Part shown: positions 5,563 through 54,065 of the stretch, piece by piece
Numbering within the stretch: the stretch's first letter is position 1
Layout: every line of letters begins with the position of its first letter
Assembly: GCA_963779415.1 (NCBI GenBank)
Contig: CAVZYA010000001.1
Span: forward strand, 128,001 to 192,000
From: an uncultured Acidobacteriota bacterium
Lineage (GTDB): Bacteria; Acidobacteriota; Thermoanaerobaculia; UBA5066
Direction: 5' to 3'
Length of the DNA: 64,000 nucleotides
Notes under the pieces: generated by a model
Told to the model about the DNA's origin: nothing
What the model saw: only the letters and a program-made list of their open reading frames with translations
Database searches by the model: none
Translations under genes and position numbers: made by a program

Positions 5563-6716
5563 CCCCGGGCGCCTACGTCCACATCCCGTTCTGCGCCCAC
5601 CGCTGCGCCTACTGTTCGTTCGTGGCGCTCGAAGGGAGATCCGAGGAGAAGAGTCTCTTCGAAGGGGTGGAGAGGGAGATTCGCTCGAGGGGAGCCGACG
5701 CGTCGCGCGGCCTTCGGAACTTCGACTCGGTCTACTTCGGAGGGGGTACTCCATCGTACGTCGACGCGATCCGGCTCCGCGGCGTGCTCGGGACACTCGA
5801 AGAAGTCTTCGGTCTCTCTTCAGATGTCGAGATGACGGCCGAAGCCAACCCGGACGACCTGGACGGCGAGAAGCTCCGTGCGCTCCGCGCCGTGGGCATC
5901 AATCGCCTCTCCGTCGGGGTCCAGTCCCTCGTGGACGAGGAGCTGGTGCCGCTCGAGCGCCGGCACGACGCGGCGGGAGCGCGACGAGCCGTGGAGGAAG
6001 CTTGCCGGCTCTTCGGAAACGTCTCGGCCGACCTGATGATCGGCATTCCGGGGCAGACGCGGACGACCCTCCGCCAAAGCGTGGACGGGCTTCTCGCGGC
6101 GGGGATCCGCCACCTTTCGGTCTACCTCCTCGAGATCGAGAAGGCGCCGCGTCTCGTCCGGCTCCTCTCCGAGCGGCCGGAGCTCTTCGCCGACGACGAC
6201 GAGATGGCCGACCGCTGGCTGGAGGTGGACGAAACGCTTGAAGCTGCCGGCCTGCCGCGCTACGAGATCTCGAACTGGGCGCGCCCCGGCTTCGAGAGCC
6301 GGCACAATCTGAAGTACTGGACCCTCGCCCCCGTCCTCGGATTCGGCGTCGCGGCGCACAGCTTCGACGGAAGGCGCCGAAGCGCCAACACCGGAATGCT
6401 CATGGAGTACCTCCGTCGAACGCGGGCGGGCGAATCGACGACGGCGACGGTCGAAGAGAACGCCGGGGGATCGGATTTTCTCAGAAGGAAGGAGAGACTG
6501 ATGCTGGGCCTGCGGCTGGCGGAGGGCGTCCCCTCTTCCTCATTCGATGAAATCCGGTCCTCGCTGCCCGCCGCGGAGGCCTCGCGGATTGGAGATGCAT
6601 TCGACGCCGGACTCCTGGAGACCGTCGACGAGGCGGGGGAGCGTGCCGGTCGACGGGTTCGCCTCACGCGCAAGGGCGTGCTCCTCTCGAACGAGGTCTT
6701 CGCGCTTTTCCTCTAG
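5559..6716 (+). CDS. hemW: Radical SAM heme chaperone HemW (HemN-like)
   Basis: TTG start overlaps the ribE stop; motifs YVHIPFC-x3-C-x2-C, GGGTPS, YEISNW, HNLKYW. Confidence 0.9.
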   Translation: MTPGAYVHIPFCAHRCAYCSFVALEGRSEEKSLFEGVEREIRSRGADASRGLRNFDSVYFGGGTPSYVDAIRLRGVLGTLEEVFGLSSDVEMTAEANPDDLDGEKLRALRAVGINRLSVGVQSLVDEELVPLERRHDAAGARRAVEEACRLFGNVSADLMIGIPGQTRTTLRQSVDGLLAAGIRHLSVYLLEIEKAPRLVRLLSERPELFADDDEMADRWLEVDETLEAAGLPRYEISNWARPGFESRHNLKYWTLAPVLGFGVAAHSFDGRRRSANTGMLMEYLRRTRAGESTTATVEENAGGSDFLRRKERLMLGLRLAEGVPSSSFDEIRSSLPAAEASRIGDAFDAGLLETVDEAGERAGRRVRLTRKGVLLSNEVFALFL

Positions 6717-8129
6717 GCCGAGGTGGACGCCGCCCCGTTGCGGCGCCGGAAGATGAAGAAGGCCGGGACGCCGAGGGCGACGATGACGAGGCCCGGAATC
6801 GTGTACGTCGGCTTGTAGAGGGCGAGGGCGATCGTGACGTAGACCGTGGCGGCGACGTAGAGAACCGGGATGATTCGCTCGGCGACGGAGCGGGCCTCGA
6901 GTGCCGGGATCGTCCGCGCGAGCCGCCAGCGCCCCACGATCGTGGCGATGTAGAAGATGAGGACGGTCGTGATGACGTAGTCGAGGAGGTCTCCGTACTT
7001 TCCGGAGAGACAGAGGAGGGAGGCCCAGACGGCCTGGGCGACGAGGGCGGCGACGGGGATCTGGCTCTTCGGCGACACCTCGGCGAAGAGCGGGAAGAAG
7101 AGGCGGTCCCGGGACATGGCGTAGAGGACCCGCGCACCCGAGAGAATCAGGCCGTTCAGGCAGCCGAAGGTCGAGACGAGGATGACGATCGCCATCACGG
7201 CTCCGGCCAGGCCGCTCTCGGAGCCTCCCGCGGCGGCCGCGATCGACGCCGTCGCGACGCGGTCCTCGGGAGCCGACGCGATGTCCCCGAGGGAGAGGAC
7301 GTTCAGGTAGCCGACGTTCGTCAGGGTGTAGAGGATCGTCACGAGAGCCGTCCCGTAGACGAGCGCCTTCGGGACGTTGTGCTCGGCGTCGCGCACCTCC
7401 TCGCCGAGAAAAGTGACGTTGTTCCAGGAGTCGGCGGCGAAGAGCGATCCGACCGTCGCGACGGCGAAGGCCCAGGCGAGGGGAATCGCGAGATCCGATG
7501 TCGCCGGAAGGGCCCAGGAGAGCGACGGGAGGCGGCTCCCGGCGACGAAGCAGACGGCCATGAGGCCGAGGAGCGAAAGGACCTTCGCCGAGGTGAAGAC
7601 GTTCTGGAGAGTCGCGACGTTCCGGACGCTCGTCGTGTTCCACCAGGTCAGAAAGGCGATGAGGGCGATGGCGACGAGCTCGACGGGAGAGAGCCGGAGA
7701 AACCGCGCGTGGAAGAAGACATGCTTCGAGGAGACCGCCGGCAGAAGAGACGCCGAGGTACTTCGCGAAGGCGACACCGACGGCCGCGAGCGTTCCCGTC
7801 TGGATGACGAGGAGCATCGCCCAGCCGTAGAGGAAACCCCCGAGGTCGCCCCACGCCTCGCGGAGGAAGACGTACTGGCCCCCCGCCTTCGGAAAGACCA
7901 TCGCGAGCTTGCCGTAGCTCCAGGCGCCGGCGACCGTGACGAGGGCCGTGAAGACCCAGACGAGGAGAAGGAGGGAGGCGCTCTTGACCTGCCGCGAGAT
8001 GTCGGCCGAGACGATGAAGATCCCGGAGCCGATCATCGAGCCCGCCACGACCGTCGTGGCGTCCAGAAGACCGAGCCGCCGCGGGAGGGTCCGCGGCGGC
8101 GCGATGCTGGGGTGGGTGACGGAGCCCAT
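6713..8129 (-). CDS. APC-family amino acid permease, split by an apparent 1-nt frameshift near 7748
   Basis: The N-terminus (GSMIGSGIF, PKAGGQYVFL) is in ORF 6540-8129 and the remaining TM helices are in ORF 6713-7777. The junction reads GGC GTC T CTT CTG CCG on the minus strand. Confidence 0.85.
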
Positions 8130-8166
8130 GGGAACTGCAGAGGGTTCCGCCTCGGGGCGGAGCGCC

Positions 8167-8589
8167 CTACTGGGCCGGGTTCACCCAGTCCATGACGATG
8201 CCGATGTTCTTGGCGCCGTTGTTCCGGACGATGTCCATGACCTTCATCGCGTCGCCGTAGTTGGCGGCGTCCTCGGCCGAGAAGAAGACGACCTTGTTCC
8301 CGCGGTTCTTGAGGAGCTCCTGCAGTCGGATGGCGAGGTTTCCGGCTTCCACCCGCTCCTTGTTCAGATAGATCTCCCGGCGGGCCGTCAGGGAGACGAT
8401 GAGCTGGTCCGTCGCCTGCGGCGGGGGAGTGTTCATCTCCGCCTTGGGCGGGACCGAGACGTCGTAGCCGCGCTGCATGAGGGGCTGGATCACCATGAAG
8501 ATGATCAGGAGGACGAGAACGACATCCACGAGAGGCGTGACATTGATCTCCGACTTCGGTCCGGCGTGGCTGCCTACATCCATTCCCAT
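8167..8589 (-). CDS. exbD: Biopolymer transporter ExbD/TolR
   Basis: TM motif EINVTPLVDVVLVLLIIFMV containing the essential Asp. Confidence 0.93.
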   Translation of the reverse strand: MGMDVGSHAGPKSEINVTPLVDVVLVLLIIFMVIQPLMQRGYDVSVPPKAEMNTPPPQATDQLIVSLTARREIYLNKERVEAGNLAIRLQELLKNRGNKVVFFSAEDAANYGDAMKVMDIVRNNGAKNIGIVMDWVNPAQ

Positions 8590-8601
8590 CGTCCGCCTCC
8601 C

Positions 8602-9021
8602 TTACTGCTCGCCCTTTTTCTCGGTGATGAGGGCGACCTTCTCGAAGCCCCCCTCCTTGACCATCTTCATCACGTTCCGGACGTCGCCGTACGAGAGACG
8701 GGAGTCCGCCTTGATGAGGATGTCCTTGCTCGAGGCGCGCTCGCCGAGTTCCTTCATCTTCGCGAGGAACTCCTTGTCGGGGAACCACTTCGTGTCAATG
8801 AAGACGGCCTTGTCGGCCTGCACGGAGACCAGGACCTCGTTCTGCGATTCCGGCTTCTTGCCGGGATTGTCGGTCTGCGGCAGGAGGACCGGCCGTCCCT
8901 TCTGCAGCATCGGCGTGACCACCATGAAGATGATCAGGAGGACGAGACAGACGTCCACCAGCGGCGTGACGTTGATCTCGCTCTTGACGTCCTGGCGGCC
9001 CCCGAAGTCTTCCATTCCCAT
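8602..9021 (-). CDS. exbD: Biopolymer transporter ExbD/TolR (second copy)
   Basis: Motifs EINVTPLVDVCLVLLIIFMV and KADSRLSYG. Confidence 0.93.
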   Translation of the reverse strand: MGMEDFGGRQDVKSEINVTPLVDVCLVLLIIFMVVTPMLQKGRPVLLPQTDNPGKKPESQNEVLVSVQADKAVFIDTKWFPDKEFLAKMKELGERASSKDILIKADSRLSYGDVRNVMKMVKEGGFEKVALITEKKGEQ

Positions 9022-9038
9022 TGCCGGATCTCCTTTTT

Positions 9039-9060
9039 CCGGGGGGACGTTTCCCCCCGG
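9039..9060. repeat. G/C-run hairpin between exbB and exbD
   Basis: CCGGGGGGA-CGTT-TCCCCCCGG (9-bp stem) next to a further C6 run. Confidence 0.6.
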
Positions 9061-9067
9061 TCCCCCC

Positions 9068-9745
9068 TCATGCCGCCTTTGCCGCCTGCCGCTTCAGGAA
9101 GTAGTCGATCAGCTCCGACGAGGAGTTCGACATCTCGACCTGGAAGCGCTCGATCTTGTTGAGGAAGTAGTTGTAGAACCAGACCGCCGGGATGGCGACG
9201 CCGAGGCCGGCGGCCGTCCCGTAGAGCGCTTCGGCGATACCGGCCGACACGGCACCGAGTCCCCCCGTGCCCGTCGCGGCCATGCCGGCGAACGACCGGA
9301 TGATGCCGATGACGGTGGCGAAGAGGCCGATGAAAGGCGCGGTCGTCGCGATCGTCGCGAGGCCGCCGAGCCCCTTCTTCATGTCCGCGGTCGTCATGAG
9401 GGCCGAGCGCTCGATGGCCCGCTCGGCCGCCGAGACGGTGTCGTGCCCGACGACGACGCCGTGCTCGCCGTAGTTGAACTCCAGGAGTCCGGCCGACACG
9501 ACCTTGGCGACGTGGCTCTCCTTGTATTTCTTGGCGAGGTCGATCCCTTCCCGGATCTTGTCCTGCTTCAGGAGCTGTCCGATCTCCAGCGCGAACTTCA
9601 CGGACTGCTTCCGGGCCTTGTTGAAGGTCAGGAGCCGCTCGATGAAGACCGTGACGGAGTAGATCGACAGGAACACCAAAAGCAGCATGATCCCCTTGAC
9701 CAGGGGGCTCATGACGGTCCAGATGTGTCCCCAATCCATCGACAT
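9068..9745 (-). CDS. exbB: MotA/TolQ/ExbB proton channel protein
   Basis: Motifs LATIATTAPFIGLFATVIGII and GIAEALYGTAAGLGVAIPA. Confidence 0.93.
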   Translation of the reverse strand: MSMDWGHIWTVMSPLVKGIMLLLVFLSIYSVTVFIERLLTFNKARKQSVKFALEIGQLLKQDKIREGIDLAKKYKESHVAKVVSAGLLEFNYGEHGVVVGHDTVSAAERAIERSALMTTADMKKGLGGLATIATTAPFIGLFATVIGIIRSFAGMAATGTGGLGAVSAGIAEALYGTAAGLGVAIPAVWFYNYFLNKIERFQVEMSNSSSELIDYFLKRQAAKAA

Positions 9746-9815
9746 AGCTAAAAGTCCTCCTTTACTCGGAACGATTGAATCTTGAGTCGGTCTCCCGAAT
9801 CGGCCGGACGCCGCC

Positions 9816-10541
9816 TCACTGGAGCGTGAAGGTGACGGTCACCGTGAGGTAGACCGGAACCGTGCGCCCGTTGAACGTGGCCGGCTTGTATTTCCACTGT
9901 TGAACCGCCCTCATGGCGGCGTTGTCGAGAAGGGGGTTGATGCCGCGCAGGACGCGGACGTCGGAAACGGCGCCGTCCTTCGTGATGATCGCTTCGAGAA
10001 TGACGACGCCCTGCATCCGGGCCTTGCGGGCGGCTTCCGGGTACTGGGGCCTGACCCGCGAGATCTCGATCGGCTCCTTGACCTCGCCGCCGACGCGCAT
10101 CGGCTCCTCGGCTCCCGGCACGCCGCCGAGGACGCCGCCCGGCACACCGCCGAGAACGCCGCCCATGACGCCGCCCGGGACACCGCCCTCGACGCCCCCC
10201 TCGACGCCTTCACCCCCCGAGTCGTCGGTCGACGGCTTCGGAAGGGCGTCCGGGATGACGACGGGAGCCGTCATCTGGTTCGTCTGCGGCTGCTCCACCT
10301 TCTGCACGACCTTCGGCGCGGCCGCCTTCGGCGGCGGCGGGGGAGGCGGCGGCGGCGGGGCGGCCTGCACGTAGAAGGAGACCGGAATCGGCGGGTCGGG
10401 AATCTCCTCGATGTACCAGAGAGAGAGGGCGACGGCGCTGCCGATGACGAGAACGTGGAGGATGAAGGCGAGCGGGAACGTCATCCAGCGCTTCTTGTCG
10501 ACCTTCTGCTTCGTGGATTCGATGAGGGCGGCTTCGAACAT
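9816..10541 (-). CDS. tonB: Energy transducer TonB
   Basis: N-terminal TM helix with His, poly-Pro linker, GGVxGGV repeats, C-terminal PQYPEAARKARMQG...WKYKPA. Confidence 0.92.
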   Translation of the reverse strand: MFEAALIESTKQKVDKKRWMTFPLAFILHVLVIGSAVALSLWYIEEIPDPPIPVSFYVQAAPPPPPPPPPPKAAAPKVVQKVEQPQTNQMTAPVVIPDALPKPSTDDSGGEGVEGGVEGGVPGGVMGGVLGGVPGGVLGGVPGAEEPMRVGGEVKEPIEISRVRPQYPEAARKARMQGVVILEAIITKDGAVSDVRVLRGINPLLDNAAMRAVQQWKYKPATFNGRTVPVYLTVTVTFTLQ

Positions 10542-10571
10542 CGTGACGTCTCCGGGCGCGAGCCCTTGGGG

Positions 10572-11456
10572 CTACATGCCCTCCAGCGGATTCTGCTTGG
10601 CCGTCTCCTGACGCTGTTTTTCCTGAACCCTCTTCCGGACCTCGAGGCCCTTCTTCTGCCACTCGTCGGCCTGCTTCAGCTCCTCGGCGCGCTGGGAGCC
10701 GTTCGTCTCGATCTTGGCGAGCTCCCGGTAGAGGAGGTTCTCGTAAAACATCGCCTCGAAGTAGTCGGGATTCAGCTCGAGAGCTTTGTTCAGGTCCTTC
10801 ATTCCCTGATCGACGATGGCGCGGCGCTGGTCCGCGGGGAGCGACTCGGGGACCGAGTTATAGGACTTGTCCCATGCCGTGACGCCCATCGTGTAGTAGA
10901 CCTCGGCGTTCGTCGGCTCGATGTCGGCCCGCTTCCGCTGCCACGTCATCGAGTTCTCGAAGTCGCCTTTCTTCGCATAGAGCATCGCGATCGTTTGAAC
11001 GGCCGCCGAGTCTTTCGGATTCCGCTGGACCATGTCCTTGAAGAAATCGATCGCCTCGTCGTACTTCTGCGAGTTCATGTACGTCGTGACGAGGAGCTTC
11101 GCGGCCTTCTCGTCGTCGGGCTTCACGGCGAGGTACTTCTTGAAGTACTCGATCGCGTTTGCGAGCGCGTCGATGTCCTTCTGGTTCTGGGAGCCGGGGT
11201 TGTACATCCCCATGTAGGACATCGCGATGAACTTGTCGAGACGGACTTCCTTGGGGTCGAGCTCCTGGGCCTGCTTGTACTTCTCGAGGGCGTCGCTGTA
11301 GAGCTGCTCCTTGAAGTACTGATTCCCCTTCCGGATGAGCTGCCGGCTCTGCAGCCGGTTGCAGCCCATGAAGGTGACCGCGAGGGCCGCGATCGCCAGG
11401 GCCGCGGCGCGGCGGGCGGTGGTCCGGGTGAGCGCCACGGTCCGGTTTTCCGTCAT
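10572..11456 (-). CDS. TPR-repeat lipoprotein, first gene of the TonB/ExbBD operon
   Basis: ATG at 11456 preceded by an AAGGAG RBS; lipobox FMGC; helical TPR repeats. Confidence 0.8.
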   Translation of the reverse strand: MTENRTVALTRTTARRAAALAIAALAVTFMGCNRLQSRQLIRKGNQYFKEQLYSDALEKYKQAQELDPKEVRLDKFIAMSYMGMYNPGSQNQKDIDALANAIEYFKKYLAVKPDDEKAAKLLVTTYMNSQKYDEAIDFFKDMVQRNPKDSAAVQTIAMLYAKKGDFENSMTWQRKRADIEPTNAEVYYTMGVTAWDKSYNSVPESLPADQRRAIVDQGMKDLNKALELNPDYFEAMFYENLLYRELAKIETNGSQRAEELKQADEWQKKGLEVRKRVQEKQRQETAKQNPLEGM

Positions 11457-11541
11457 CGCCCCGTCACTCCTTTCACGAACCCGCCTCCACCCTGTGAGAC
11501 CCGCGTGCCGCAATATTAGTTCCGGACCCGGAAACGGCGTG

Positions 11542-11558
11542 CGATTCCGTCGGAATCG
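11542..11558. promoter_or_regulatory. Perfect palindrome (putative transcription factor site) upstream of the TPR-tonB operon
   Basis: CGATTCCG-T-CGGAATCG; a TAATAT -10 candidate lies at 11518-11513 on the minus strand. Confidence 0.4.
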
Positions 11559-13625: not shown

Positions 13626-13629
13626 CGCG

Positions 13630-15560: not shown

Positions 15561-15581
15561 CCCGCGGCGGCGGCCCGGCCC

Positions 15582-22095: not shown

Positions 22096-23481
22096 ATGTC
22101 CGGCGAGCTCTTCGACGAACCCGACCCGTCCGAAGAGGCTCAGGTACCGGCCGTGCCGCCGACGGGAGCTCCTCTCGCCGACCGGATCCGCCCCCGGGAC
22201 CTTGCCGAGGTCGTCGGTCCGCCCGAGCTCGTCGGGCCGGAGTCGTTTCTCGGGAAGGCCATCGCGGAGGACCGCGTTCCGTCGCTCGTCTTCTGGGGCC
22301 CGCCGGGATCCGGGAAGACGACGCTGGCGCGTCTCATTGCGGCCCGGACGCGTGCCCGTTTCGTCGCCTTCTCGGCCGTCGTCTCCGGCATCAAGGAGAT
22401 CAAGGCCGTCATGGAGGAGGCCGGACGCGTCCGGCGCAGCGGACGGCGGACGCTTCTCTTCGTCGACGAGATCCACCGCTTCAACCGTGCGCAGCAGGAC
22501 GCCTTCCTGCCGTTCGTCGAGACGGGAGTGATCGTCCTGGTCGGCGCGACGACGGAGAACCCTTCGTTCGAGCTGAACGGCGCGCTCCTCTCGCGCCTGC
22601 GCGTCGTCATTCTTCCTCCGATCGCGGAGGCCGACCTGATCGTCCTGATGAAGCGAGCGCTCGCGGACCCCACGAGGGGCCTTGCGGCAAGGGTCACGGT
22701 CGAAGAGGACGCCTTCGAATGGCTCGCCCGGTTCGCCGACGGCGACGCACGGCGAGCCCTCACGGCTCTCGAATCCGCGGTCGCCCAGATCCCTTTCGAA
22801 GAGAATCCCCCAGCGCTCTCGGTCTCCCTTCTCGAAGAGATGTTCCGGCGCAAGGTCCTTCTCTACGACAAGTCGGGCGAGGAGCATTTCAACCTGATCT
22901 CGGCTCTCCACAAGTCGCTCCGCGACTCGGACGTGGACGCCTCGCTCTACTGGCTCGCCCGGATTCTGGAAGCGGGCGAGGACCCGCTCTACGTCGCCCG
23001 GCGGCTCGTCCGCTTCGCGTCGGAGGACGTGGGCCTCGCCGATCCCGGAGCGCTTCGCGTCGCGCTCGACGGGAAGGACGCCGTCGACTTCATCGGCCTG
23101 CCCGAGGGGGCGCTCGCCCTCGCCCAGGTCGCCGTCACTCTCGCCCTCGCCCCGAAGTCGAATGCGCTCTACACGGCATACGGAGCGGCCGTCTCCGACG
23201 TGAGGGAGCGTCCGAACGAGCCGCCGCCGCTTTCGATCCGCAACGCCCCGACGAAGCTGATGAAGGAATCGGGCTACGGAGCCGGCTATCTCTACGCGCA
23301 CGACCTCGCGGAGAAGACCGCCGGCCTCGACTGCCTCCCCGACGCGCTTCGCGACCGGATCTACTACCGGCCGACCACCGAAGGGAAGGAAGCGAGGTTC
23401 AAGGAGCGGGCCGACGCGATCCGGAAGCTGCGGCAAGAGCTGAAGAGGAAGAGAAGGGGAGAGGGGGAACGACGAGGGTGA
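22096..23481 (+). CDS. rarA: Replication-associated recombination protein RarA/MgsA
   Basis: Motifs PLADRIRP, GPPGSGKTT, DEIHRFN, ATTENPSF, ISALHKS, SEDVG. Confidence 0.96.
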   Translation: MSGELFDEPDPSEEAQVPAVPPTGAPLADRIRPRDLAEVVGPPELVGPESFLGKAIAEDRVPSLVFWGPPGSGKTTLARLIAARTRARFVAFSAVVSGIKEIKAVMEEAGRVRRSGRRTLLFVDEIHRFNRAQQDAFLPFVETGVIVLVGATTENPSFELNGALLSRLRVVILPPIAEADLIVLMKRALADPTRGLAARVTVEEDAFEWLARFADGDARRALTALESAVAQIPFEENPPALSVSLLEEMFRRKVLLYDKSGEEHFNLISALHKSLRDSDVDASLYWLARILEAGEDPLYVARRLVRFASEDVGLADPGALRVALDGKDAVDFIGLPEGALALAQVAVTLALAPKSNALYTAYGAAVSDVRERPNEPPPLSIRNAPTKLMKESGYGAGYLYAHDLAEKTAGLDCLPDALRDRIYYRPTTEGKEARFKERADAIRKLRQELKRKRRGEGERRG

Positions 23482-23537
23482 GGAGATCCAGGGAGAGAAA
23501 AGCCGTAGAGAAAAGGACCGGAGGAAGAACCACGAGA

Positions 23538-23630
23538 GACTTCTTAGAAGGTGAATCGGTCACGGGCGCGGGCTAAGCTCACGATATGCGCCTCGACCTG
23601 ACCAGAGTTCTATTACCTTCTAAGAAAATC
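23538..23630. repeat. Inverted pair of the dispersed TTCTNAGAA motif flanking the redoxin promoter and start codon
   Basis: TTCTTAGAAGGT (23541-23552) and ACCTTCTAAGAA (23615-23626) are exact reverse complements. Confidence 0.75.
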
Positions 23631-24896
23631 CCTTGGTCGGTCTCCCTCTTTCTTGTCGTTACTCTTATCGTTCTCTCCGGGTCCGCGCTTGCCCAGCCCG
23701 CTTCCGGCTTCGATCCCGTCGGCCTCTGGTACGCGCGGCTCTCGCCGACGGAGAACAACCCCGTGGAGTTCCAGGTCCGGATCTCGAGGAAGAAGAGCGC
23801 GCTTTCGGCGGCGCTGATCAACGGAACGGCCTCCGAGCCGTTCAGCGGCGTTGCCTGGGACGGGGCGACCCTCACACTCGAGATGGCGCACTACGACGCG
23901 AAGATCGTCGCGACGCCGAAAGAGGGGGGCCTGGAAGGGACGTTCACCCGGATCGTCGCGGGAGGGACGCGGGAGTTCCCGTTCTCGGCGACCCGGACGG
24001 CGCCTCCTCCGGTCGCCGTGAAGAAGCCGGGGCTCTCCGTTTCGGGGTCTTGGGCGGTCGAGATCGCGTTTCCCGGAAAGAGCCCGGAGAAGGTCACGGC
24101 GCTCCTCTCGCAGAAAGGAACCGTGGTGACAGGAACGATGGCGTCGGTGAGCGGGGATTACGGACCGCTCCACGGGACGTTCGACGGCCAAGAGCTGGTC
24201 CTCACGGTCTTCAACGGGATCTTCGTCTATCGCTTCACGGGCGAGCTTCTGCCGGACGGAACGCTCGCGGGCGAGTACCTTTCGTCCAGGCTCCCGCCGG
24301 TCGACTGGAGGGGGAAGAGACAGTCTGTCGTCGCCGACTTCGCCGGCCTGAAGCCGACGGAGCCCGAAAAGCCGTTCGTCTTCGCCCTCCCCGCAATGGA
24401 CGGAAAGAGGCTCTCGTCGACGGAGCCTCCCTTCGCGGGGAAGGCGATGATCGTCACCGCCATGGGGTCGTGGTGCCCGAACTGCCACGACGAGGCGCCG
24501 GTTCTCGAGGAGCTCTGGAGGAAGTACCGGGCGCGAGGGCTCGAGGTCGTCGCCTTCACCTACGAGTACACGGACGACCTGGAACGGAGCCGGCGGCTCG
24601 TGGCGGAGTTCCGGAAGCGAAATGGCGTCACCTACCCGATCCTCTGGGCCGGGACGACGAAGGACGCCGCCTCCTCGCCGCTCTTTGCCCGCGTGGACGG
24701 GCCGCGCGCCTATCCGACGACGTTCTTCCTCGATCGGCAGCACCGGATCGTGGGTGTCCACTCCGGATTCGACGGACCGGCAACCGGCGCGCGCTTCAAG
24801 AAGCTGAAGAAGGAATGGGAAGAAACGGTGCGAAAGCTCGTCGGAGCGGCGGATGAGTTCCCGGTCCCGGACGCGACGTCGATCGGGGTCAACTAG
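23586..24896 (+). CDS. Exported TlpA/ResA-like thiol-disulfide oxidoreductase with N-terminal beta domains
   Basis: Signal peptide; C-terminal thioredoxin fold with SWCPNC and cis-Pro motif YPTTFFLDR. Confidence 0.85.
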   Translation: MRLDLTRVLLPSKKIPWSVSLFLVVTLIVLSGSALAQPASGFDPVGLWYARLSPTENNPVEFQVRISRKKSALSAALINGTASEPFSGVAWDGATLTLEMAHYDAKIVATPKEGGLEGTFTRIVAGGTREFPFSATRTAPPPVAVKKPGLSVSGSWAVEIAFPGKSPEKVTALLSQKGTVVTGTMASVSGDYGPLHGTFDGQELVLTVFNGIFVYRFTGELLPDGTLAGEYLSSRLPPVDWRGKRQSVVADFAGLKPTEPEKPFVFALPAMDGKRLSSTEPPFAGKAMIVTAMGSWCPNCHDEAPVLEELWRKYRARGLEVVAFTYEYTDDLERSRRLVAEFRKRNGVTYPILWAGTTKDAASSPLFARVDGPRAYPTTFFLDRQHRIVGVHSGFDGPATGARFKKLKKEWEETVRKLVGAADEFPVPDATSIGVN

Positions 24897-40209: not shown

Positions 40210-40256
40210 TCGCCGGCCTCCCCTGCGCGGGGCGTCGCCGCTAGAATCGCCCGCCC

Positions 40257-41384: not shown

Positions 41385-42214
41385 GCGGCGCCGTCCGCTT
41401 CGTGGTGCCGGCGGAGAATGCCGGTGACGTCGAAGAGAATCTCTTCGAGGGGTTCGGAGAGATCGCCTTTTCCGCCACGCGCGAGCCTTCCGGCGAACTC
41501 TCGATCTGGGTGGAGGGAGGCGACGCCGCCGGAGCGCGGACGATCCTGGAAGGACTGGGCGCCGCCGGAGTTCCTTCTTTCGAAGAGATCCCCCGGGACT
41601 GGGTGGCCGACGCGGCGGCCTTGCGGACGAGTGTTGTCGTCGGCCGCTATCTTCTCGACCCGCACGACGGCGCTCTGGCGACCGCGCCCGCCCCGGGACA
41701 GATCCGCCTCTCGCTCCCGGCGGCCCGCGCCTTCGGGACCGGCTCGCACGAGTCGACGCGCCTCGCGATCCGTCTCCTCCTTTCCGAGACTCTCGCGGGA
41801 CGGCGCGTCCTCGACGTCGGCTGCGGCGCGGGGACGCTCGCCTTCGTCGCCGCCCTTGAGGGCGCTGCATGGACGATGGCGTTCGACCTCGACGTCGATG
41901 CCGCGCTCGCGACCCGCGAGCACGGGATCGCGAACCGGATCCGCCGCCTCGCCGTCTTCGCCGGGCCTCTCGAGGCGATCCGCCAGGCCGCGCGGTTCGA
42001 CGTGATCGTCGCGAACATGATTCTCGAAGAGGTCGCGCCGCTTCTCCCGGGGCTCCGCTCCCGCCTTTCGCGCCGGGGCCGGCTTCTCAGCTCGGGGCTT
42101 CTCGTCGAGCGAAGGAGGGAATGGGAAGATCTGCTGCGAGAAAAGGACTACCGGATCGTCCGCTCTCTCGCCGAGGGCGAATGGCTGGGGACGGCCGCCG
42201 AATCCGTCGAATGA
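41381..42214 (+). CDS. prmA: Ribosomal protein L11 methyltransferase PrmA
   Basis: Motifs [29 protein letters not shown]; follows dnaJ. Confidence 0.88.
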
Positions 42215-43054
42215 AAGAGACGAAGAACGGAGTGCCACGGACCGAGGCGCCCCGCCCGCCGCGGGTGCTCGTGCCGGACGTGGCGGCGCCTCGGGGCAAG
42301 GCCGAAGAGATCGTTCTTCGAAAGGAAGAGACGGCTCATCTCCGGTCCCGCCGCCTTCGCGACGGGGACGAGGTCATCGTCCTTGACGGAAAGGGCGGCC
42401 GGGGAAACGGGACGATCGCCTCGAGGGGGACGGCGGTACGTCTCCTCTCCTTCGAAGAAAGCCCCGGTCTCCTCTCCCCATCCCCATCCTCATCCGCATC
42501 CTTCTCTTCGCTCCCGGGCGAGCCGGCTCTTCGGGTCACCGTCCTTCTTGCGTGCGCGGAGCCGGCGCGTGTCGAGTGGGCCGTCGAGAAAGGGACCGAG
42601 TGCGGCGCCGCGGCGTTCGTGCTGCTCGCCGCCGGCGCGCTCGCAGCGGGCCCACGTCGCGGCGCTCCGGGCGCGCCTTCCGCGCCTCTCGCGGATCGCG
42701 GCCGAAGCGGCGAAGCAGTGCGACCGGACGATCGTCCCCGAGATCGAGGGACCCGAAGAGATCGGGACTTTTCTTCGAAGGGAAGAAGAGCGGGGGGATG
42801 CGCGGCTCCCGCTTCTGCTGGCCGATCCCTCCGGCGCGCCGCTCGCAAGGACGATCTCCTCGCCGTCCGTCTCCGCGTCCCTGGCCCGCGGACTGGTCCT
42901 CGCGATAGGCCCCGAGGGGGGATTCACGCCGGCGGAGCTCTCCTCATTCGAAGAGTCCGGCGCTCTTCGGTTCTCCCTCGGCCCCCGCATCCTCCGCCTC
43001 GAGACCGCCGTCGTCGCGGCGCTCACCGTCTTGGTCGGTGGGGCGGACCGCTGA
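42211..43054 (+). CDS. rsmE: 16S rRNA m3U1498 methyltransferase RsmE, with an apparent 1-nt frameshift near 42634
   Basis: HLRSRRL and VEKGTECG in one frame; EAAKQCDR, IGPEGG and LGPRILRLETA in the next. Confidence 0.88.
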
Positions 43055-43111
43055 CGGGTTCGCCGGCGATTTTTCGGTTAGGATCTCGCGGTCCTCGGAC
43101 GGGAGGGGCTC

Positions 43112-44823: not shown

Positions 44824-44832
44824 TTCAGGTCG

Positions 44833-45468
44833 TCACGTTGACTTGCTTGGAAGTGGGAGAGGAGAAGAGCGGAGATCCGTCGGCCGATCCACGTCGCGGA
44901 GGACTCCGTCGTCGAAGCCCTCGAGATGCAGGACCGAGAGATCGGGCTCATTGAAGAGGTCGGAGAGACGCCGGTCGTCTGGCCACGAGAGGATTCTCGG
45001 GACGAGCGCGGTGGAGAACACCAGCGGATGCCCGCGCCCGCCCGCATGTGTGGGGACAGCCAGGGTTCGCTCGTCGAGCGAGCCCGCCGCAGCGAGGACG
45101 ACCCTGAGAGACTCCTTGCTCAGAAAGGGAAGATCGGCGGGGGAGATGGCGACGTGCGTCGAGCGGGCGGCGGCCGCGAGCGCGGCGAGGCCCGCTTTCA
45201 CCGAAGTGAACATTCCATCCTGCCACTTCGGATTCTCGACGCACCGGACCTTCTCTGAGAGGTCTTCTATTACCTTTCTAAGAAGATCTTGCAGGCCATC
45301 GCCTTCGCCCGAAGGCAGCACGACGAGGACCTCGTCGAGTCCGGCGGAGCAGAAGGTCCTCGTCACTCGCCGGAGAACCGGCTCGCCGTCTATCTCCGCG
45401 AGCATCTTCGGCGAGCCGAAGCGCGAGGAGGCGCCTGCCGCGAGGAGGAGCCCGGAGACGAAGCTAAT
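44833..45468 (-). CDS. mocA: Molybdenum cofactor cytidylyltransferase (MocA-like); probable ATT start at 45468
   Basis: The conserved LLAAGASSRFGSPK lies upstream of the first ATG (45405); further motifs NPKWQDGMFTS, DLP, GHP, DVD. Confidence 0.82.
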   Translation of the reverse strand: MSFVSGLLLAAGASSRFGSPKMLAEIDGEPVLRRVTRTFCSAGLDEVLVVLPSGEGDGLQDLLRKVIEDLSEKVRCVENPKWQDGMFTSVKAGLAALAAAARSTHVAISPADLPFLSKESLRVVLAAAGSLDERTLAVPTHAGGRGHPLVFSTALVPRILSWPDDRRLSDLFNEPDLSVLHLEGFDDGVLRDVDRPTDLRSSPLPLPSKST

Positions 45469-49046: not shown

Positions 49047-49629
49047 GGCGGCCTCCCTTGCGGGCGCTCTCGCACGCGGCGACGATCTCGTTGTAGGCGC
49101 CGCACCGGCAGAGGTTGCCCGCCATGCCGATCCGGATCTCGGCGGGGGTCGGGTCGGGATTCCGCCTCAGGAGCCCTTCCGCCGCCACGACCATTCCCGG
49201 CGTGCAGAAGCCGCACTGAAGCCCGTCGGCGTCGATGAAAGCCTGCTGGAGGGGCGAGAGCGCGTCCGGAGAGCCGAGCCCCTCGATCGTCGTCACGCTC
49301 CGTCCGTCGGCGTCGTGGACGAGCGTGAGGCACGAGTTCACCGCGAGGCCGTCGAGCAGGACCGTGCAGGCCCCGCAGGCGCCCCGGTCGCACCCGATCT
49401 TCGTCCCCGTGAGTCCCCATGCCTCCCGGAGAGCCTCGGCGAGCGTCGTCCGCGCCTCGAAGACGCCCTGCCGGGGCGTCCCGTTCACGTTCACGGTCAC
49501 CATCCCGTCCGCGGGGCGTTTCCGCTCCCCGGCGAGGGCGGTGGCGCCGGAGGCCGCTCCCGCGACCGCGGTCGTGGCGATCCCCTTCAGGAGACCGCGC
49601 CGTGTCACGCCTTTTCCGTTGTCGGTCAT
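49039..49629 (-). CDS. paoA: 2Fe-2S subunit with Tat signal peptide (PaoA/YagT-like)
   Basis: Twin-arginine motif TRRGLLK; GTKIGCDRGACGACTV, QCGFCTPG, GNLCRC. Confidence 0.9.
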   Translation of the reverse strand: MTDNGKGVTRRGLLKGIATTAVAGAASGATALAGERKRPADGMVTVNVNGTPRQGVFEARTTLAEALREAWGLTGTKIGCDRGACGACTVLLDGLAVNSCLTLVHDADGRSVTTIEGLGSPDALSPLQQAFIDADGLQCGFCTPGMVVAAEGLLRRNPDPTPAEIRIGMAGNLCRCGAYNEIVAACESARKGGRHA

Positions 49630-49675
49630 CTCCACCTCCCCCGGGCGCAAAACTATACCGCCGGGCGGCTTTTCG

Positions 49676-49705
49676 TTGACCTCGGCGAGGCCGACGACCT
49701 ATTCT
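49676..49705 (+). promoter_or_regulatory. Sigma70-type promoter for pilT
   Basis: TTGACC-18 nt-TATTCT, with GAGG before ATG 49722. Confidence 0.5.
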
Positions 49706-49721
49706 GAGATCGAGGCACGGC

Positions 49722-50894
49722 ATGCACATCAACGATCTCCTGAAGATCGCGGTCGAGAGGAAGGCCTCGGACCTTCATCTGAAGGTCGGTGCGCATCCCA
49801 TCCTCCGGGTGGACGGCGAGTTGATCCCGCTCGTCGACCTGAAGCGCCTCATGCAGGAGGACACGATCGCGATGGCGTTCTCGATCATGTCCTCCCGCCA
49901 GAAGGAGAAGTTCAAGAACAACTACGAGATCGACATCGCCTACTCCGTTCCGGGGCTGGGGCGGTTCCGCTGCAACATCTTCCAGCAGCGGGGAACGGTC
50001 GGTCTCGTCTGCCGGGTCATTCCGGCCCGCATCCTCGCGATCCGCGAGCTTCTCCTGCCGCCGGTCATCGAGAAGATCTGCGAGGAGACGCGCGGGCTCG
50101 TCCTCGTGACGGGGACGACCGGGTCGGGCAAGTCGACGACGCTGGCCGCGATGATCGACTACATCAACGCGACCCGCTCCGAGCACATCATGACGATCGA
50201 GGACCCGGTCGAGTTCCTCCACCGGGACAAGAAGTCGATCGTCAACCAGCGCGAGCTGGAGGTGGACACGCGCTCCTTCGCGGCGGCCATCCGGTCGGCG
50301 CTCCGCCAGGACCCCGACGTCATCCTCGTCGGCGAAATGCGCGACTTCGAGACGGTGGAGACGGCCCTCCTCTCGGCCGAGACCGGCCACCTCGTCATGT
50401 CGACCCTCCATACCGTCGACGCGACGGAGACCGTCAACCGGATCATCTCGGTCTTCCCGCCGCACCAGCAGAAGCAGATCCGCCTTCAGCTCGCGGCCGT
50501 GATCAAGGCGGTCATCTCGATGCGCCTTCTCCCTCGCTCGGACGGCCTCGGGCGCGTCCCGGCCGTCGAGGTGATGGTCGCGACGAACTACATCCGGGAC
50601 TGCATCGAGAACAAGGAGAAGACGAAGTACATCCACGACGCGATCAAGGCCGGCACGTCCCAGTACGGGATGCAGACCTTCGACCAGTCGCTCTACCAGC
50701 TCTACAAGAGCGGGCTCATCACCCTCGAGGAGGCGATGCGCCGGTCGACGAACCCGAACGAGTTCCGCCTGAGGATCCAGGGGATCCAGTCCACCTCGGA
50801 CGTCTCGACCGAGATGATGGAGGGCTCGCTGGACGCGCCGGAGACGCGCTCCGAGGCGGACTCGCCCTTCGACTTCTCGAACCAGACGGGGTGA
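49722..50894 (+). CDS. pilT: Type IV pilus retraction ATPase PilT
   Basis: Motifs ASDLHL, GTTGSGKSTT, TIEDPVE, ALRQDPDVILVGEMRD, AETGHLV, GMQTFDQ. Confidence 0.95.
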   Translation: MHINDLLKIAVERKASDLHLKVGAHPILRVDGELIPLVDLKRLMQEDTIAMAFSIMSSRQKEKFKNNYEIDIAYSVPGLGRFRCNIFQQRGTVGLVCRVIPARILAIRELLLPPVIEKICEETRGLVLVTGTTGSGKSTTLAAMIDYINATRSEHIMTIEDPVEFLHRDKKSIVNQRELEVDTRSFAAAIRSALRQDPDVILVGEMRDFETVETALLSAETGHLVMSTLHTVDATETVNRIISVFPPHQQKQIRLQLAAVIKAVISMRLLPRSDGLGRVPAVEVMVATNYIRDCIENKEKTKYIHDAIKAGTSQYGMQTFDQSLYQLYKSGLITLEEAMRRSTNPNEFRLRIQGIQSTSDVSTEMMEGSLDAPETRSEADSPFDFSNQTG

Positions 50895-51238
50895 GCCTCC
50901 GCGCCCGCGAGACCGCGCTCGCGCTCCTCTCGCGACGCGCGTACACCGGGGCGGCGCTCGCCCGGGCGCTCGTCGCGCGGGGCATCCGGGAGTCCGAGGC
51001 GGCCGCCGTCATCGCGGAGTTCGAGGCGAAGCGGTACCTCGACGACGAGGCCGAAGCGCTGGAGCGCGCGCTGGCGCGGAAGGTGCGGGCGCTCCCTCCC
51101 GGATTGACGCCGGAGGCGCGGTCGAAGAAACTCTTCGCCCACCTCGTGCGGCGCGGCTTCGCTCCCGGCGCCGTGATCGAGGCGCTCCACCGGAAAGGCG
51201 AGGCCACAGATGACGACTTCCCGGGCGTGGACGTCTAG
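50891..51238 (+). CDS. recX: Regulatory protein RecX (short, 115 aa)
   Basis: Motifs ALALLSRRAYT, YLDD, LFAHLVRRGF; lies immediately before alaS. Confidence 0.75.
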   Translation: MSLRARETALALLSRRAYTGAALARALVARGIRESEAAAVIAEFEAKRYLDDEAEALERALARKVRALPPGLTPEARSKKLFAHLVRRGFAPGAVIEALHRKGEATDDDFPGVDV

Positions 51239-54065
51239 GGACGTCCGCAGCACGTTCCTCCGATACTTCGAGACGAGGGGGCACGCCGTCGTCCCGTCGT
51301 CGTCGCTCGTCCCGGCGGACGACCCGACGCTCCTCTTCACGAACGCCGGGATGAACCAGTTCAAGGACGTCTTCCTCGGGCGCGAGAAGCGGGCGTACGT
51401 CCGCGCGGCCTCTTCGCAGAAGTGCGTCCGCGCGGGGGGGAAGCACAACGATCTCGACAACGTCGGCTACACGGCCCGTCATCACACCTTCTTCGAGATG
51501 CTGGGGAACTTCTCCTTCGGCGACTACTTCAAGAGGGAAGCGATCGACTTCGCGTGGGAGCTGGTGACGGGGCGCGAGTGGTACGCGCTCGATCCGGCGC
51601 GCCTCTGGGCGACCGTCTACCGGGACGACGACGAGGCGGCGGACCTCTGGGCGCGCCACCTCCCGAAGGAGCGGATCCGCCGCTTCGGCGAGAAGGACAA
51701 CTTCTGGTCGATGGGGGAGACGGGTCCGTGCGGCCCCTGCTCCGAGCTTCACTACGACCAGGGCCCGTCGGTCCCCGGCGACGACGTCCCGAACGCGCGG
51801 GGAGACCGGGTCATGGAGATCTGGAACCTCGTCTTCATGCAGTTCGACCGGGATCCCGAAGGGCGGATGACGCCCCTTCCGAAGCCCTCCGTCGACACGG
51901 GAGCCGGGCTCGAGCGGATCACGGCGATCCTCGAGGGGAAGAACAACAACTACGACACGGATGTCTTCGAGCCGGTCATTCAGAGAATCGGGAGCCTGAG
52001 CGGGCGGAAGTACCTCGGAAACATGGAGGTCGGGGACGCCCCCTTCCGCGTCATCGCCGATCACGCGCGAGCGGCGACGATGCTCATCGCCGACGGGGTC
52101 ATTCCCTCGAATGAAGGAAGGGGATACGTTCTTCGAAGGATCATCCGGCGCGCCCTCCGTTACGCGCGACGGCTGGGCATCGAGACGGAGGCTCTCGTCC
52201 AATCGAAGAAATCGATGCTTGCCTACCTCGCGCAGCCAGTCCTCGAGGGCTTTCGCGGAATTCACTTCTCAGAAGAATCCTTCGAAAGGGTCACGGGGCG
52301 CTTCACCGGTGCCTATTTCGATTACCTTCTGAACGAGGAGTGGCTCTTCAATCGCACGATGTCGGTCGGAGCAGACAAGGTGGGGGAGGAGATCTCCGCC
52401 GCCCGTCGCGAGGCCGAGAGGGCCGGGGAAGGGCACATCACCCTCGGCGGGCCGGCCGTCTTCCACCTCTACGACACGTTCGGAGTTCCGCTCGAGCTGA
52501 TCGAGGAGATCGCGGGCGACGAGGGGATCAAGGTGGACCGCCCGGGCTTCGAGTCGGAGATGGCGAAGGCGCGCGAGCGCTCGAAGGCCGGCTCGAGATT
52601 CGACGCGGAGAGCGGCCTTCCGAAGGAAAGCCAGATCGACCCCTCCTGGGAGACTGATTTCCGCGGGTATCCGGAGCAGGACTTCGTTCGCCTCGAAGGA
52701 GGGCTCGTGCTTGGCCTGAATTCGGTGGAGCGCGGGGAGAAGCTGCCTTTTCTTCGAAAGGGGGAGAAGGGGTGGTGCATCCTGGACCGGACGGTCTTCT
52801 ACCCCGAGGGGGGCGGGCAGGTGGCCGACCAGGGAGAGCTTTTCTGGAAGAGCGAGGGAGGCGAAGGTCGAGCCGTCGTCCTCGACGTGCGCCGCACTCC
52901 TTCCGGGAAGGCGGTTCTCCACCTTCTGAGAATCGAAAGCGGTCTTCTGGCGGCGGGGCAGGTCGTGCGCATGGAAGTCGACGAGTGGACGCGGCGGCGG
53001 ACGCAGGCGAACCATACGGGGACGCATCTGCTTCACGCGGCCCTCCGGGCGGTCCTCGGCGAGTCGGTCCGGCAGATGGGCTCGCTCGTGGCGCCGGACC
53101 GCCTCCGCTTCGACTACGCGGCCTCGCGGCCGACGACTCCGGACGAGATCCGCGAGATCGAGCGGCTCGTCAACGAGGAGATCCTCCGGGACCGGCCGGT
53201 GTCGAAGGAGGTCACGTCGATGGACGCCGCGAAGGCGAAGGGCGCCATCATGTTCTTCGGCGAGAAGTACGGCGAGCGGGTCCGCGTGGTGGACGTCCCC
53301 GGCTTCTCCACGGAGCTGTGCGGCGGGTGCCACGTCGGAAGGACCGGCGAGATCGGAGCCTTCAAGGTCCTCGTCGACCGGGGCCTCGCGGCCGGCGTCC
53401 GGCGCCTCGAAGCCGTGACGTCGCTCGGCGCCGTCGAGAGGCTGCAGAAGGACGAAGAGATCCTCTCGGAACTCTCCCATCTGGTGAACGCACAGCCGCA
53501 CGAACTGCCGGAAAGGCTCAAAGAAGCCCTGGATTCTCTCAGAAAGAAAGAGAAGGAAATCCAGCAGCTCAAGGTGCAGCTCGCGCTGGGCGGCGGCGCG
53601 GGGGCGCCAGGAGGCGTCTCGGGCGGGTCGGCCGCGCGAATGGCCTCCGGCTCTCTACCTTTAGAAGAATCGGTCTCCTCGGACCTTTCCCGAAGCGCCG
53701 GCGCGAATTGGGATGTCGGTGTGCAGGAGATCGCGGGCGTCAAGGTTCTCGCGCGGCGCGTGCCGTCGCTCCCGGCGAACGAGCTGCGAAACCTCGCCGA
53801 TACGTTCCGGGCGAAGCTGAAGTCCGGGGTCGTCCTCCTCGGAACGGAAGGTGAGGAAGGGAAGGTGCTGCTCCTCGCCGCCGTCACGCCCGACCTCGCT
53901 CCGCGCGTTCCGGCGGGCGATCTCGCCCAGGCGATGGCCCCCGTCGTCGGCGGAAAGGGAGGGGGAAAACCGGACCTCGCTCAGGCGGGGGGGCGCGACC
54001 CGTCGAAGATCGGAGAGGCGTTGGAGCGCGGCGTGGCCCGTGTTCGGGAGCGTCTCGGGGCCTGA
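51210..54065 (+). CDS. alaS: Alanine--tRNA ligase
   Basis: Motifs LLFTNAGM, HHTFFEMLGNFSFGDYFK, DTGAGLER, HTGTHLLH, ELCGGCH, GGKGGG. Confidence 0.98.
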   Translation: MTTSRAWTSRDVRSTFLRYFETRGHAVVPSSSLVPADDPTLLFTNAGMNQFKDVFLGREKRAYVRAASSQKCVRAGGKHNDLDNVGYTARHHTFFEMLGNFSFGDYFKREAIDFAWELVTGREWYALDPARLWATVYRDDDEAADLWARHLPKERIRRFGEKDNFWSMGETGPCGPCSELHYDQGPSVPGDDVPNARGDRVMEIWNLVFMQFDRDPEGRMTPLPKPSVDTGAGLERITAILEGKNNNYDTDVFEPVIQRIGSLSGRKYLGNMEVGDAPFRVIADHARAATMLIADGVIPSNEGRGYVLRRIIRRALRYARRLGIETEALVQSKKSMLAYLAQPVLEGFRGIHFSEESFERVTGRFTGAYFDYLLNEEWLFNRTMSVGADKVGEEISAARREAERAGEGHITLGGPAVFHLYDTFGVPLELIEEIAGDEGIKVDRPGFESEMAKARERSKAGSRFDAESGLPKESQIDPSWETDFRGYPEQDFVRLEGGLVLGLNSVERGEKLPFLRKGEKGWCILDRTVFYPEGGGQVADQGELFWKSEGGEGRAVVLDVRRTPSGKAVLHLLRIESGLLAAGQVVRMEVDEWTRRRTQANHTGTHLLHAALRAVLGESVRQMGSLVAPDRLRFDYAASRPTTPDEIREIERLVNEEILRDRPVSKEVTSMDAAKAKGAIMFFGEKYGERVRVVDVPGFSTELCGGCHVGRTGEIGAFKVLVDRGLAAGVRRLEAVTSLGAVERLQKDEEILSELSHLVNAQPHELPERLKEALDSLRKKEKEIQQLKVQLALGGGAGAPGGVSGGSAARMASGSLPLEESVSSDLSRSAGANWDVGVQEIAGVKVLARRVPSLPANELRNLADTFRAKLKSGVVLLGTEGEEGKVLLLAAVTPDLAPRVPAGDLAQAMAPVVGGKGGGKPDLAQAGGRDPSKIGEALERGVARVRERLGA

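Follow-up and report, generated by a model that had tools for sequence, protein, structure and literature searches.

What is the short AT-rich palindrome that lies scattered through unrelated housekeeping genes in a 64,000-nucleotide stretch of DNA (the window, G000:C1:128001-192000) from an uncultured Acidobacteriota bacterium of the class Thermoanaerobaculia? The genome from which the window comes, G000, comprises 4.36 Mb in three contigs with a G+C content (GC) of 68.5%. A first-pass annotation made from the window alone had noticed repeated cores of the form TTCTNAGAA and had proposed a lineage-specific signal laid over the genetic code at the DNA level, either an uptake sequence or a binding site for a dimeric protein. 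We find that a duplex-DNA signal specific to the lineage is present in the window in about 14 copies, and that its unit is not the palindrome but a pair of long asymmetric arms which face each other 45-250 bp apart.

All six exact cores, at 6478, 23541, 23618, 45276, 52266 and 52924, were confirmed. The earlier expectation of about 0.1 cores per 64 kb was somewhat low, dinucleotide shuffles of the window giving 0.34 +/- 0.62, but the excess itself stands, as 0 of 100 shuffles reached six. The similarity reported to extend from 23608-23630 to 45265-45288 is also real. Among the one-mismatch relatives, those at 42314, 42451, 42771, 52750 and 53536 belong to the family (14-27 bits on the matrix described below), whereas 49702 is not a member and 52129 is a weak facing partner of another site (7.6 bits); the looser match at about 22790 corresponds to a weak site at 22795 (12.8 bits) that is retained in relatives. 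The claim about rare codons also holds: in 1120 long open reading frames (ORFs) AGA accounts for 2% of Arg codons, CTA and TTA for 1% and 0% of those for Leu, and GTA and ATA for 2% and 1% of those for Val and Ile. No other 64-kb bin of the genome has as many cores as the window, with 6 of the 64 copies of TTCTNAGAA found genome-wide, and its density is hence above the genome average.

Across the whole genome TTCTAAGAA/TTCTTAGAA occurs 45 times, compared with 2.05 and 1.36 expected under order-3 and order-4 Markov models. Alignment of these 45 exact copies gave tcTTcaCC-TTCTAAGAA-RATCtCc, where C at -2 is invariant (45 of 45) and T at -5 and R at +9 are shared by 36 and 41 copies. From them we built a 27-column position weight matrix (PWM), which found 203 sites in G000 at >=14 bits, 135 at >=18 bits and 93 at >=22 bits, while one order-5 Markov simulation of the same size gave 20, 2 and 1; the 45 training sites count among the matches, so that 90 of the 135 are independent. 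The cores of the 135 sites are TTCTAAGAA (45), TTCGAAGAA (39), TTCCAAGAA (7) and rarer variants. The related word TTCTSAGAA is not enriched under order-3/4 Markov models (19 copies vs 5-16) and is enriched under a codon-aware null (12 vs 2.4). The arm consensus is approximately cTcTTCaCC-TTC[T>G]AAGAA-RATCtCC, asymmetric and pyrimidine-skewed. Conservation falls off gradually outward from the core, and the pyrimidine skew spans about -20 to +40 around it, giving an arm of ~55 nt. Since the asymmetric flanks are conserved and the second commonest core, TTCGAAGAA, is non-palindromic, the palindrome seen in the first reading is incidental, and the model of a dimer seated on a single palindrome was dropped. 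The motif recurs in genome assemblies from separate projects. Among sequencing runs, no RNA run was listed as containing the sequence, the best DNA run shared 0.21 of words, and four runs gave no cover of 23510-23711.

The signal overrides the genetic code. We assigned genes with our own crude ORF scoring (3600 genes, 84% coding), and intergenic shares and start sites are therefore approximate; arms truncated gene calls in such simple scoring, and could pass for protein motifs or mobile elements. There are 29 exact copies in coding DNA, compared with 0.92 +/- 0.88 and a maximum of 3 in 100 within-gene shuffles of synonymous codons, and 116 copies of TTCGAAGAA compared with 41.6 in the synonymous-codon shuffles. 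All four stop-free frames are occupied (9, 7, 9 and 4 copies), and the orientation of arms relative to the gene strand is unbiased (46:42). At core position 4, T occupies 33 of the 47 intergenic sites and 38 of the 62 that lie in harmless frames; of the 26 sites in the two frames in which it would yield TAA or TAG, 24 have G and one has T (Fisher p=2e-7). The signal favours T, yielding solely to keep the gene open, and this dodging of stop codons is a clean signature of selection or drive acting on DNA. Genes carrying arms show weaker codon bias with the arms masked (0.192 vs 0.229 +/- 0.013), and the arms impose recurrent peptides (LPSKKI, FLEG and LLRR). Coding sites number 88 of 135 (65%) and intergenic sites 47, a 2.2-fold intergenic enrichment given that 16% of bases are intergenic. 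The first-pass annotation had named three outcomes that would speak against a lineage-specific signal over the code, namely no excess over a codon-aware background, confinement to a single reading frame, and absence from related genomes. What we found was the reverse in each case: the excess persists in codon-aware shuffles, frames and strands are all used, and arms are present at orthologous positions in relatives.

The arms are organised in facing pairs. Neighbouring sites within 400 bp of each other are ordered minus-then-plus in 43 of 56 cases, with the purine-rich strands inward, the other orders accounting for 4, 2 and 7. Of the 117 arms of >=20 bits, 75 are faced on their inner side by a partner of >=6 bits that lies 45-200 bp away, whereas the mirror control found one partner on the outer side and three in the same orientation; the single copy is hence not the functional unit. 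In a set of 60 spacings, with paralogues counted once, the distance has a minimum of 47 and a tail to ~270; 19 of the 60 fall at 70-90 bp, and the mode at single-base resolution is 76-81. No helical phasing of these 60 spacings was detected (best R 0.26 vs null 95% 0.31). The pair centres are unrelated between copies, genome-like in composition (GC 0.71) and without dyad symmetry (0.286 vs 0.292 shuffled), and the paired arms measure ~140-160 bp from outer edge to outer edge. Furthermore, the flanks of the two arms in one pair are no more alike than those of different pairs (p=0.23), which counts against hairpin pairing, template switching and arm-to-arm conversion. A function at the RNA level was rejected, as the gene strand is unbiased and paired arms do not covary. 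The genome holds 107-147 units, and 135-203 sites in 4.36 Mb amount to 1 per 21-32 kb.

Within the window the clear pairs are 23541/23618 (spacing 77), 42314/42451 (spacing 137) and 52750/52924 (spacing 174), and five more arms have weak partners. The arms are listed below with their PWM scores and, where available, those of the same position in relatives, which are uncultured genome bins of the Thermoanaerobaculia (G003 and so on).

5647..5673, minus strand: weak arm in a hemW-like radical S-adenosylmethionine gene (assigned via Pfam Radical_SAM and HemN_C), core CTCTTCGAA on the plus strand; 17.3 bits; no facing partner found (best -0.4).
6470..6496, minus strand: arm in the hemW-like gene, core TTCTCAGAA, an exact TTCTNAGAA; 22.7 bits; weak facing partner at 6543 (6.1 bits, spacing 65).
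22785..22811, plus strand: weak arm TTCGAAGAG in rarA; 12.8 bits; in G004, G010 and several more relatives the arm at this position scores 24-29 bits.
23533..23559, minus strand: left arm of the rarA-redoxin pair, TTCTTAGAA-GGTGAATCG; 33.4 bits; 59 bp past the rarA stop codon, facing 23618 at spacing 77.
23608..23634, plus strand: right arm of the rarA-redoxin pair, CTATTACC-TTCTAAGAA-AATCCC; 37.6 bits; within the first codons of the redoxin ORF 23586-24896, translated LLPSKKI (L(L/F)LPSKKI in relatives).
41569..41595, plus strand: weak arm TTCGAAGAG in prmA (Pfam PrmA); 14.4 bits; 19.5 bits in G006.
42306..42332, minus strand: left arm of the pair at the junction of prmA and an rsmE-like gene; 16.5 bits; faces 42451 at spacing 137; G010 carries TTCTTAGAA there (34.4 bits).
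42441..42467, plus strand: right arm of the same pair, in the 5' part of the rsmE-like gene (Pfam Methyltrans_RNA on ORF 42383-43054); 21.8 bits.
42763..42789, minus strand: arm TTCTTCGAA-GGGAAGAAG in the rsmE-like gene; 26.7 bits; TTCTTAGAA in G006 (37.2 bits).
45266..45292, plus strand: arm CTATTACCT-TTCTAAGAA-GATC in a MobA-like NTP-transferase gene (44833-45405, minus strand; Pfam NTP_transf_3), read as DLLRKVIE; 35.4 bits; weak facing partner at 45117 (9.6 bits, spacing 159); retained at 17.0 bits in G003 and 13.0 bits in G004.
52256..52282, plus strand: weak arm TTCTCAGAA in alaS (Pfam tRNA-synt_2c); 14.9 bits; weak partner at 52129 (7.6 bits, spacing 137).
52742..52768, minus strand: left arm of the alaS pair; 14.1 bits; faces 52924 at spacing 174.
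52914..52940, plus strand: right arm of the alaS pair, CTCCACC-TTCTGAGAA-TCG, read as LHLLRI; 12.6 bits; 32.6 bits in G010 and 27.6 bits in G004.
53528..53554, minus strand: arm CTCTCAGAA-AGAAAGAGAAGG in alaS; 19.9 bits; weak partner at 53661 (7.4 bits); 25.7 bits in G010 and 25.2 bits in G004.

Elsewhere in the genome, a tandem array of paralogous genes for proteins of ~900 residues (G000:C1:953000-967000) shows, in the same conserved segment of each gene, facing pairs that resemble the motif and are spaced at exactly 93. Four matches at this spacing lie in such genes and may be partly protein-driven; protein family and DNA motif are confounded here.

Pfam matches place further pairs within RNase R, alanine racemase, histidinol dehydrogenase and Sua5/TsaC, so that in rnr, alr, hisD and sua5, as in alaS, inverted repeats flank a short intragenic segment. 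Comparison of both hisD arms with solved HisD structures required single-residue gaps at most, the arms replacing VRREG by ILRRG and DLEKTGIAV by SLPSKKILV (~9 codons). The HisD Pfam span is 396 residues for 400 profile positions, Sua5 has no excess length, and the first alr arm aligns without gaps. RNase R carries ~20 extra residues near the pair, in a variable region, and Alr also has a small extra segment near an arm. The alaS orthologs differ by substitution at the arm 52914..52940, with TTCTAAGAA in G010, TTCTGAGAA in G000 and G004, TCCTGAGGA in G003 and TCCTCCGGA in G007, all of them encoding LH(L/F)LRI. We conclude that the arms overwrite coding and non-coding DNA in place, without insertion.

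The distribution of the motif among relatives is narrow. Counted in 31 related genomes, CYTTCTAAGAA occurs 45 times in G000, 17, 12, 3, 8, 6, 19 and 1 times in seven congeners, 127 times in G010 (a second genus) and 0-2 times in the remaining 22. This tally, like those given below for the 151 genomes of the class, for ComEC and for an HNH protein, includes G019 and G024, flagged as unpublished, which only add to the motif-free outgroup counts and on which no claim depends. A 12-mer counted in 151 genomes of the class (67 genera) is frequent only in the genera g1 (G000 41, G003 2) and g4, where 10 of 10 genomes hold 59-223 copies; the other 139 genomes hold 0-3. The g4 genome G070 shows the same consensus as G000, with 21 of 25 neighbours facing and 55 sites in 400 kb (about 1 per 7-9 kb). 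Base composition was rejected as the cause, as G070 has a GC of 70.4% yet more copies. In viral contigs we found only single 15-mer matches, each in a different contig.

Both arms of the rarA-redoxin pair are present in six related species and one arm in two more, at a RarA identity of 72-85%, with a centre that varies in length and sequence between species. Of the window sites that BLAST could align, scores of >=10 bits are kept at 4 of 5 in G010, 5 of 6 in G004, 3 of 4 in G006, 3 of 9 in G003 and 0 of 7 in G007; the rarA-redoxin pair survives in G003, where most other sites have eroded. By this comparison the motif is older than the split of the two genera, and has decayed in G003 and G007, mostly by AT-to-GC changes. 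Such erosion implies an active maintaining force elsewhere, which acts in two Thermoanaerobaculia genera and whose lapse in G003 and G007 lets the arms drift towards GC. Downstream of the rarA stop codon and ahead of the left arm, relatives have in common a conserved GCTTCGGACCCGTGCG...GTCCG segment resembling a terminator or a small structured RNA, in place of which G000 carries a purine-rich tract.

In G000 all three contigs and both skew domains carry sites, on a map that is incomplete at three contigs. GC skew and dnaA place the origin near C2:419 kb, and the skew switches near C1:450-500 kb. Orientation relative to replication shows no clear skew (77 sites of >=18 bits co-oriented vs 58), unlike that of polar words of the Chi or KOPS type. 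In two g4 genomes, G042 and G070, pairs lie 4 kb from dnaA, and hence no regional rule is conserved; the mapping lends no support to the earlier suggestion of a regional site resembling matS or the Noc-binding sites (NBS). The dnaA gene of G000 (C2:418760-419244) consists of two adjacent pieces in different frames (419062/419068), which points to a frameshift or to an error of assembly. On contig C3 (0.40 Mb) an arm lies between the ribosomal protein genes S17 and L16 (G000:C3:71193-72466), which identifies the contig as chromosomal rather than a plasmid.

What might maintain such pairs? The reading that we prefer, tentatively, is a drive of the uptake-signal type acting through a receptor that bridges the two arms. 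Each arm would be read as duplex DNA by one subunit of a putative dimeric or multimeric sequence-specific protein, which would clamp the two arms side by side and loop the DNA between them. Bridging would explain why facing is nearly obligate and why spacing has a lower limit of ~47-64 bp, as well as the free centre and the lack of gene-strand bias. The reader may be part of the DNA-uptake apparatus, in which case the motif would persist by biased uptake and homologous replacement (molecular drive), a process by which essential genes could acquire costly rare codons and altered amino acids. Drive by uptake fits the evolutionary behaviour of the arms because they overwrite sequence in place, erode, are enriched between genes and vary in copy number as expected of a drive-like trait (1-45 in g1, 59-223 in g4), and because competence genes are present: ComEC, with DprA, ComEA-type HHH_3 and prepilins in relatives.

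Several observations weigh against an uptake-based drive. In G000 one site falls every 21-32 kb, and in G070 every 7-9 kb or so, whereas DNA-uptake sequences (DUS) and uptake signal sequences (USS) occur at about 1 per kb. Uptake signals are not known to come as obligate facing pairs with a preferred spacing, and a simple uptake drive should accept single arms in any relative orientation. The units are clustered (coefficient of variation 1.4-1.5 vs 1.0), and 359 kb around dnaA and the GC-skew minimum (G000:C2:154906-514028) are free of arms (P about 5e-5), where a uniform drive predicts no such stretch; regional erosion or replacement may account for it. The competence genes do not track the motif, as 29 of 31 genomes have ComEC, motif-free genera among them, DprA and ComEA persist in the eroded G003 and G007, and three prepilin-like genes are present in 5 of 5 genomes including the motif-free G017. 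ComEC was not found in G007 (640 contigs; DprA and ComEA present), which we read as an assembly gap. Finally, no reader protein was identified among the candidates tested. The uptake role suggested in the first-pass annotation is plausible, but the density is 20-30 times below that of DUS/USS and an obligate spaced pair is not one of their traits.

The candidates were the following. Y1/RAYT proteins were rejected as readers, as the four Y1_Tnp genes of G000 all lack an arm within 1.2 kb and such genes are present in the motif-poor G003 and G007 and absent from the motif-rich G010. Reverse transcriptases as writers and IS630-type DDE_3 transposases were each found in 0 of 5 genomes, and serine recombinases gave 0 matches in G000. 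An HNH protein that adjoins a strong arm has an unfit distribution, being present in 30 of 31 genomes. Of 20 flanking genes scanned at 12 intergenic sites, 19 belong to unrelated families and one gave no match, with no recurrent DNA-binding neighbour, and no autonomous element was seen between distant facing arms.

Two gene families met in this search are of separate interest. The HNH-domain protein (269 residues, G000:C1:1330221-1331027), kept in 30 of 31 genomes of the order, contains 1-3 in-frame TGA codons, sometimes TAG, in many relatives and none in G000; these could reflect selenocysteine or recoding, or an artefact of matches that cross frames. A ComGE/GspH-like prepilin, at G000:C2:461054-461632 and also in G017, adjoins a ComEA-type HHH_3 gene in G003 (C2:415158-416169) and G010 (C128:358-1304) as a conserved competence-style pair.

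A second explanation, possible but doubtful, dispenses with uptake: a chromosomal DNA-binding protein, whether nucleoid-associated or a global looping repressor or roadblock, would bridge the arms into loops of ~80-250 bp, and host selection would retain the sites. Cooperative bridging suits the facing rule and a minimum spacing, sites show no dependence on the direction of transcription (46:42), and 107-147 units per genome is typical of sites such as NBS and the SlmA-binding sites (SBS), which are also intragenic. Two conserved placements agree with it as well, the rarA-redoxin pair in at least six species including the eroded G003, and the pair that G042 and G070, the g4 genomes examined, each have 4 kb from dnaA. 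Harder to reconcile with host selection are a copy number that is unstable among close species (1-45; 59-223) and the overwriting of conserved enzyme segments, as in HisD, though cheaper places exist. The spacing lacks helical phasing, no regional pattern is conserved, and a candidate protein was not found among those tested.

It is unlikely that the arms serve no organism-level function and are spread by a selfish writer, through short-patch ectopic conversion or a homing-like nick-and-repair process that copies ~25-55 nt. The exchange of ~9-codon segments as a whole (DLEKTGIAV vs SLPSKKILV in HisD), the gradual outward decay of conservation, the unstable copy number and the erosion after lost maintenance would all follow from such copying, but the orthologous intermediates in alaS (TTCTAAGAA, TTCTGAGAA, TCCTGAGGA and TCCTCCGGA) are those expected of stepwise change, and the arms of one pair are no more alike than those of different pairs (p=0.23). 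Nor do the candidate enzymes fit, with reverse transcriptase and DDE_3 missing from 5 of 5 genomes, Y1/RAYT genes not adjoining arms and the HNH protein universal (30 of 31).

Facing arms could also be inverted sites of a site-specific recombinase that flips the segment between them (intragenic invertons). The short intragenic segments flanked by inverted arms have this form, and their minimum of ~47-64 bp resembles the synapsis limits of Cre and FLP. However, flipping would wreck the essential hisD, alaS and rnr genes, the related species read show the rarA-redoxin centre in one orientation, and the arm lacks obvious half-sites around a crossover core. Together with the lack of a serine recombinase in G000 (tyrosine recombinases were not searched), this makes invertons improbable.

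We consider very improbable a Chi-like self mark for a translocating nuclease or defence system, in which a facing pair would serve either direction of approach. Such a mark would be over-represented, asymmetric, lineage-specific and overlaid on genes, as the arms are, and pairing would give bidirectionality without a replichore skew. Chi words, however, are of 5-8 nt, far denser and skewed with replication, compared with an arm of 27-55 nt and a ratio of 77:58 here, and the preferred spacing of 76-81 bp would have no role.

The surviving ends of an old in-frame small mobile element, of the kind of Rickettsia palindromic elements (RPE), miniature inverted-repeat transposable elements (MITE) or REPINs, would explain the outer distance of ~140-160 bp, a typical MITE size, and the small extra segments near the arms in RNase R and Alr. 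This view is largely refuted and we give it very little credence: HisD and Sua5 have no added length, orthologs differ by substitution rather than by presence or absence, the centres are host gene sequence (GC 0.71, no dyad symmetry), 65% of sites are coding, and distant arms have no autonomous copy between them.

That chance, composition, codon usage or a recurrent peptide produced the motif has a negligible probability, in spite of some TTCGAAGAA matches, perhaps partly protein-driven, at spacing 93 in four ~900-residue paralogs, as Markov, dinucleotide and synonymous-codon nulls all fail 20-30-fold, four frames and both strands are used, and G070 combines a higher GC (70.4%) with more copies.

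The boldest picture, which we put forward with considerable reserve, is that of a chromosome marked by hundreds of protein-clamped loops, each formed from two facing arms of ~30-55 nt that have evolved within essential genes, as a positioned chromatin particle or a paired uptake signal with no described counterpart. Were this so, the reader should be identifiable, since G003 and G007 let their marks decay: rich and eroded sister lineages provide a natural experiment in which it could be found by comparative genomics.

Among known systems, several share part of this architecture. The operators of looping repressors (GalR OE/OI, LacI O1/O3 and AraC) likewise place two sites ~90-200 bp apart with free DNA between them and a lower limit set by bending; they are palindromic, few per genome, located at promoters and helically phased, whereas the arms are asymmetric, form more than 100 units, are mostly intragenic and are unphased. 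The sites matS, NBS (Noc), SBS (SlmA) and parS resemble them in being tens to a few hundred dispersed sites, often intragenic, each read by a dedicated protein, but these are 12-16-bp palindromes of restricted regions, and the arms are asymmetric and paired with no conserved regional pattern. RPE and in-frame MITEs, and the REPIN/RAYT system, offer inverted arms in intact genes and recurrent peptides comparable to LPSKKI, FLEG and LLRR; the arms differ in having no inserted length, conserved interior, hairpin covariation or associated transposase, and REPINs are extragenic hairpin doublets where 88 of 135 sites here are coding. HIP1 of cyanobacteria is an over-represented word of one lineage, in genes and spacers and retained in orthologs, yet it is an 8-bp palindrome of very high density in contrast to a long asymmetric arm in spaced pairs.

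The closest likeness is to DUS and USS, which share with the arms an asymmetric lineage-specific word on both strands and in several frames, a cost in rare codons, intergenic enrichment, orthologous retention and the company of competence genes. The motif described here is 20-30 times sparser, its arm is longer (27-55 nt), and its arms form almost obligate facing pairs at 45-250 bp, whereas DUS and USS occur as single copies or tight terminator hairpins; its uptake role is putative, and competence genes do not track it. A literature search confined to search listings returned nothing on uptake or signal sequences in Acidobacteriota. To our knowledge, only two proteobacterial families have well-understood signal words that override the code throughout the genome, and these occur as single copies. 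The arms of these Thermoanaerobaculia bring such words to a different phylum, with a distinct architecture of spaced facing pairs.

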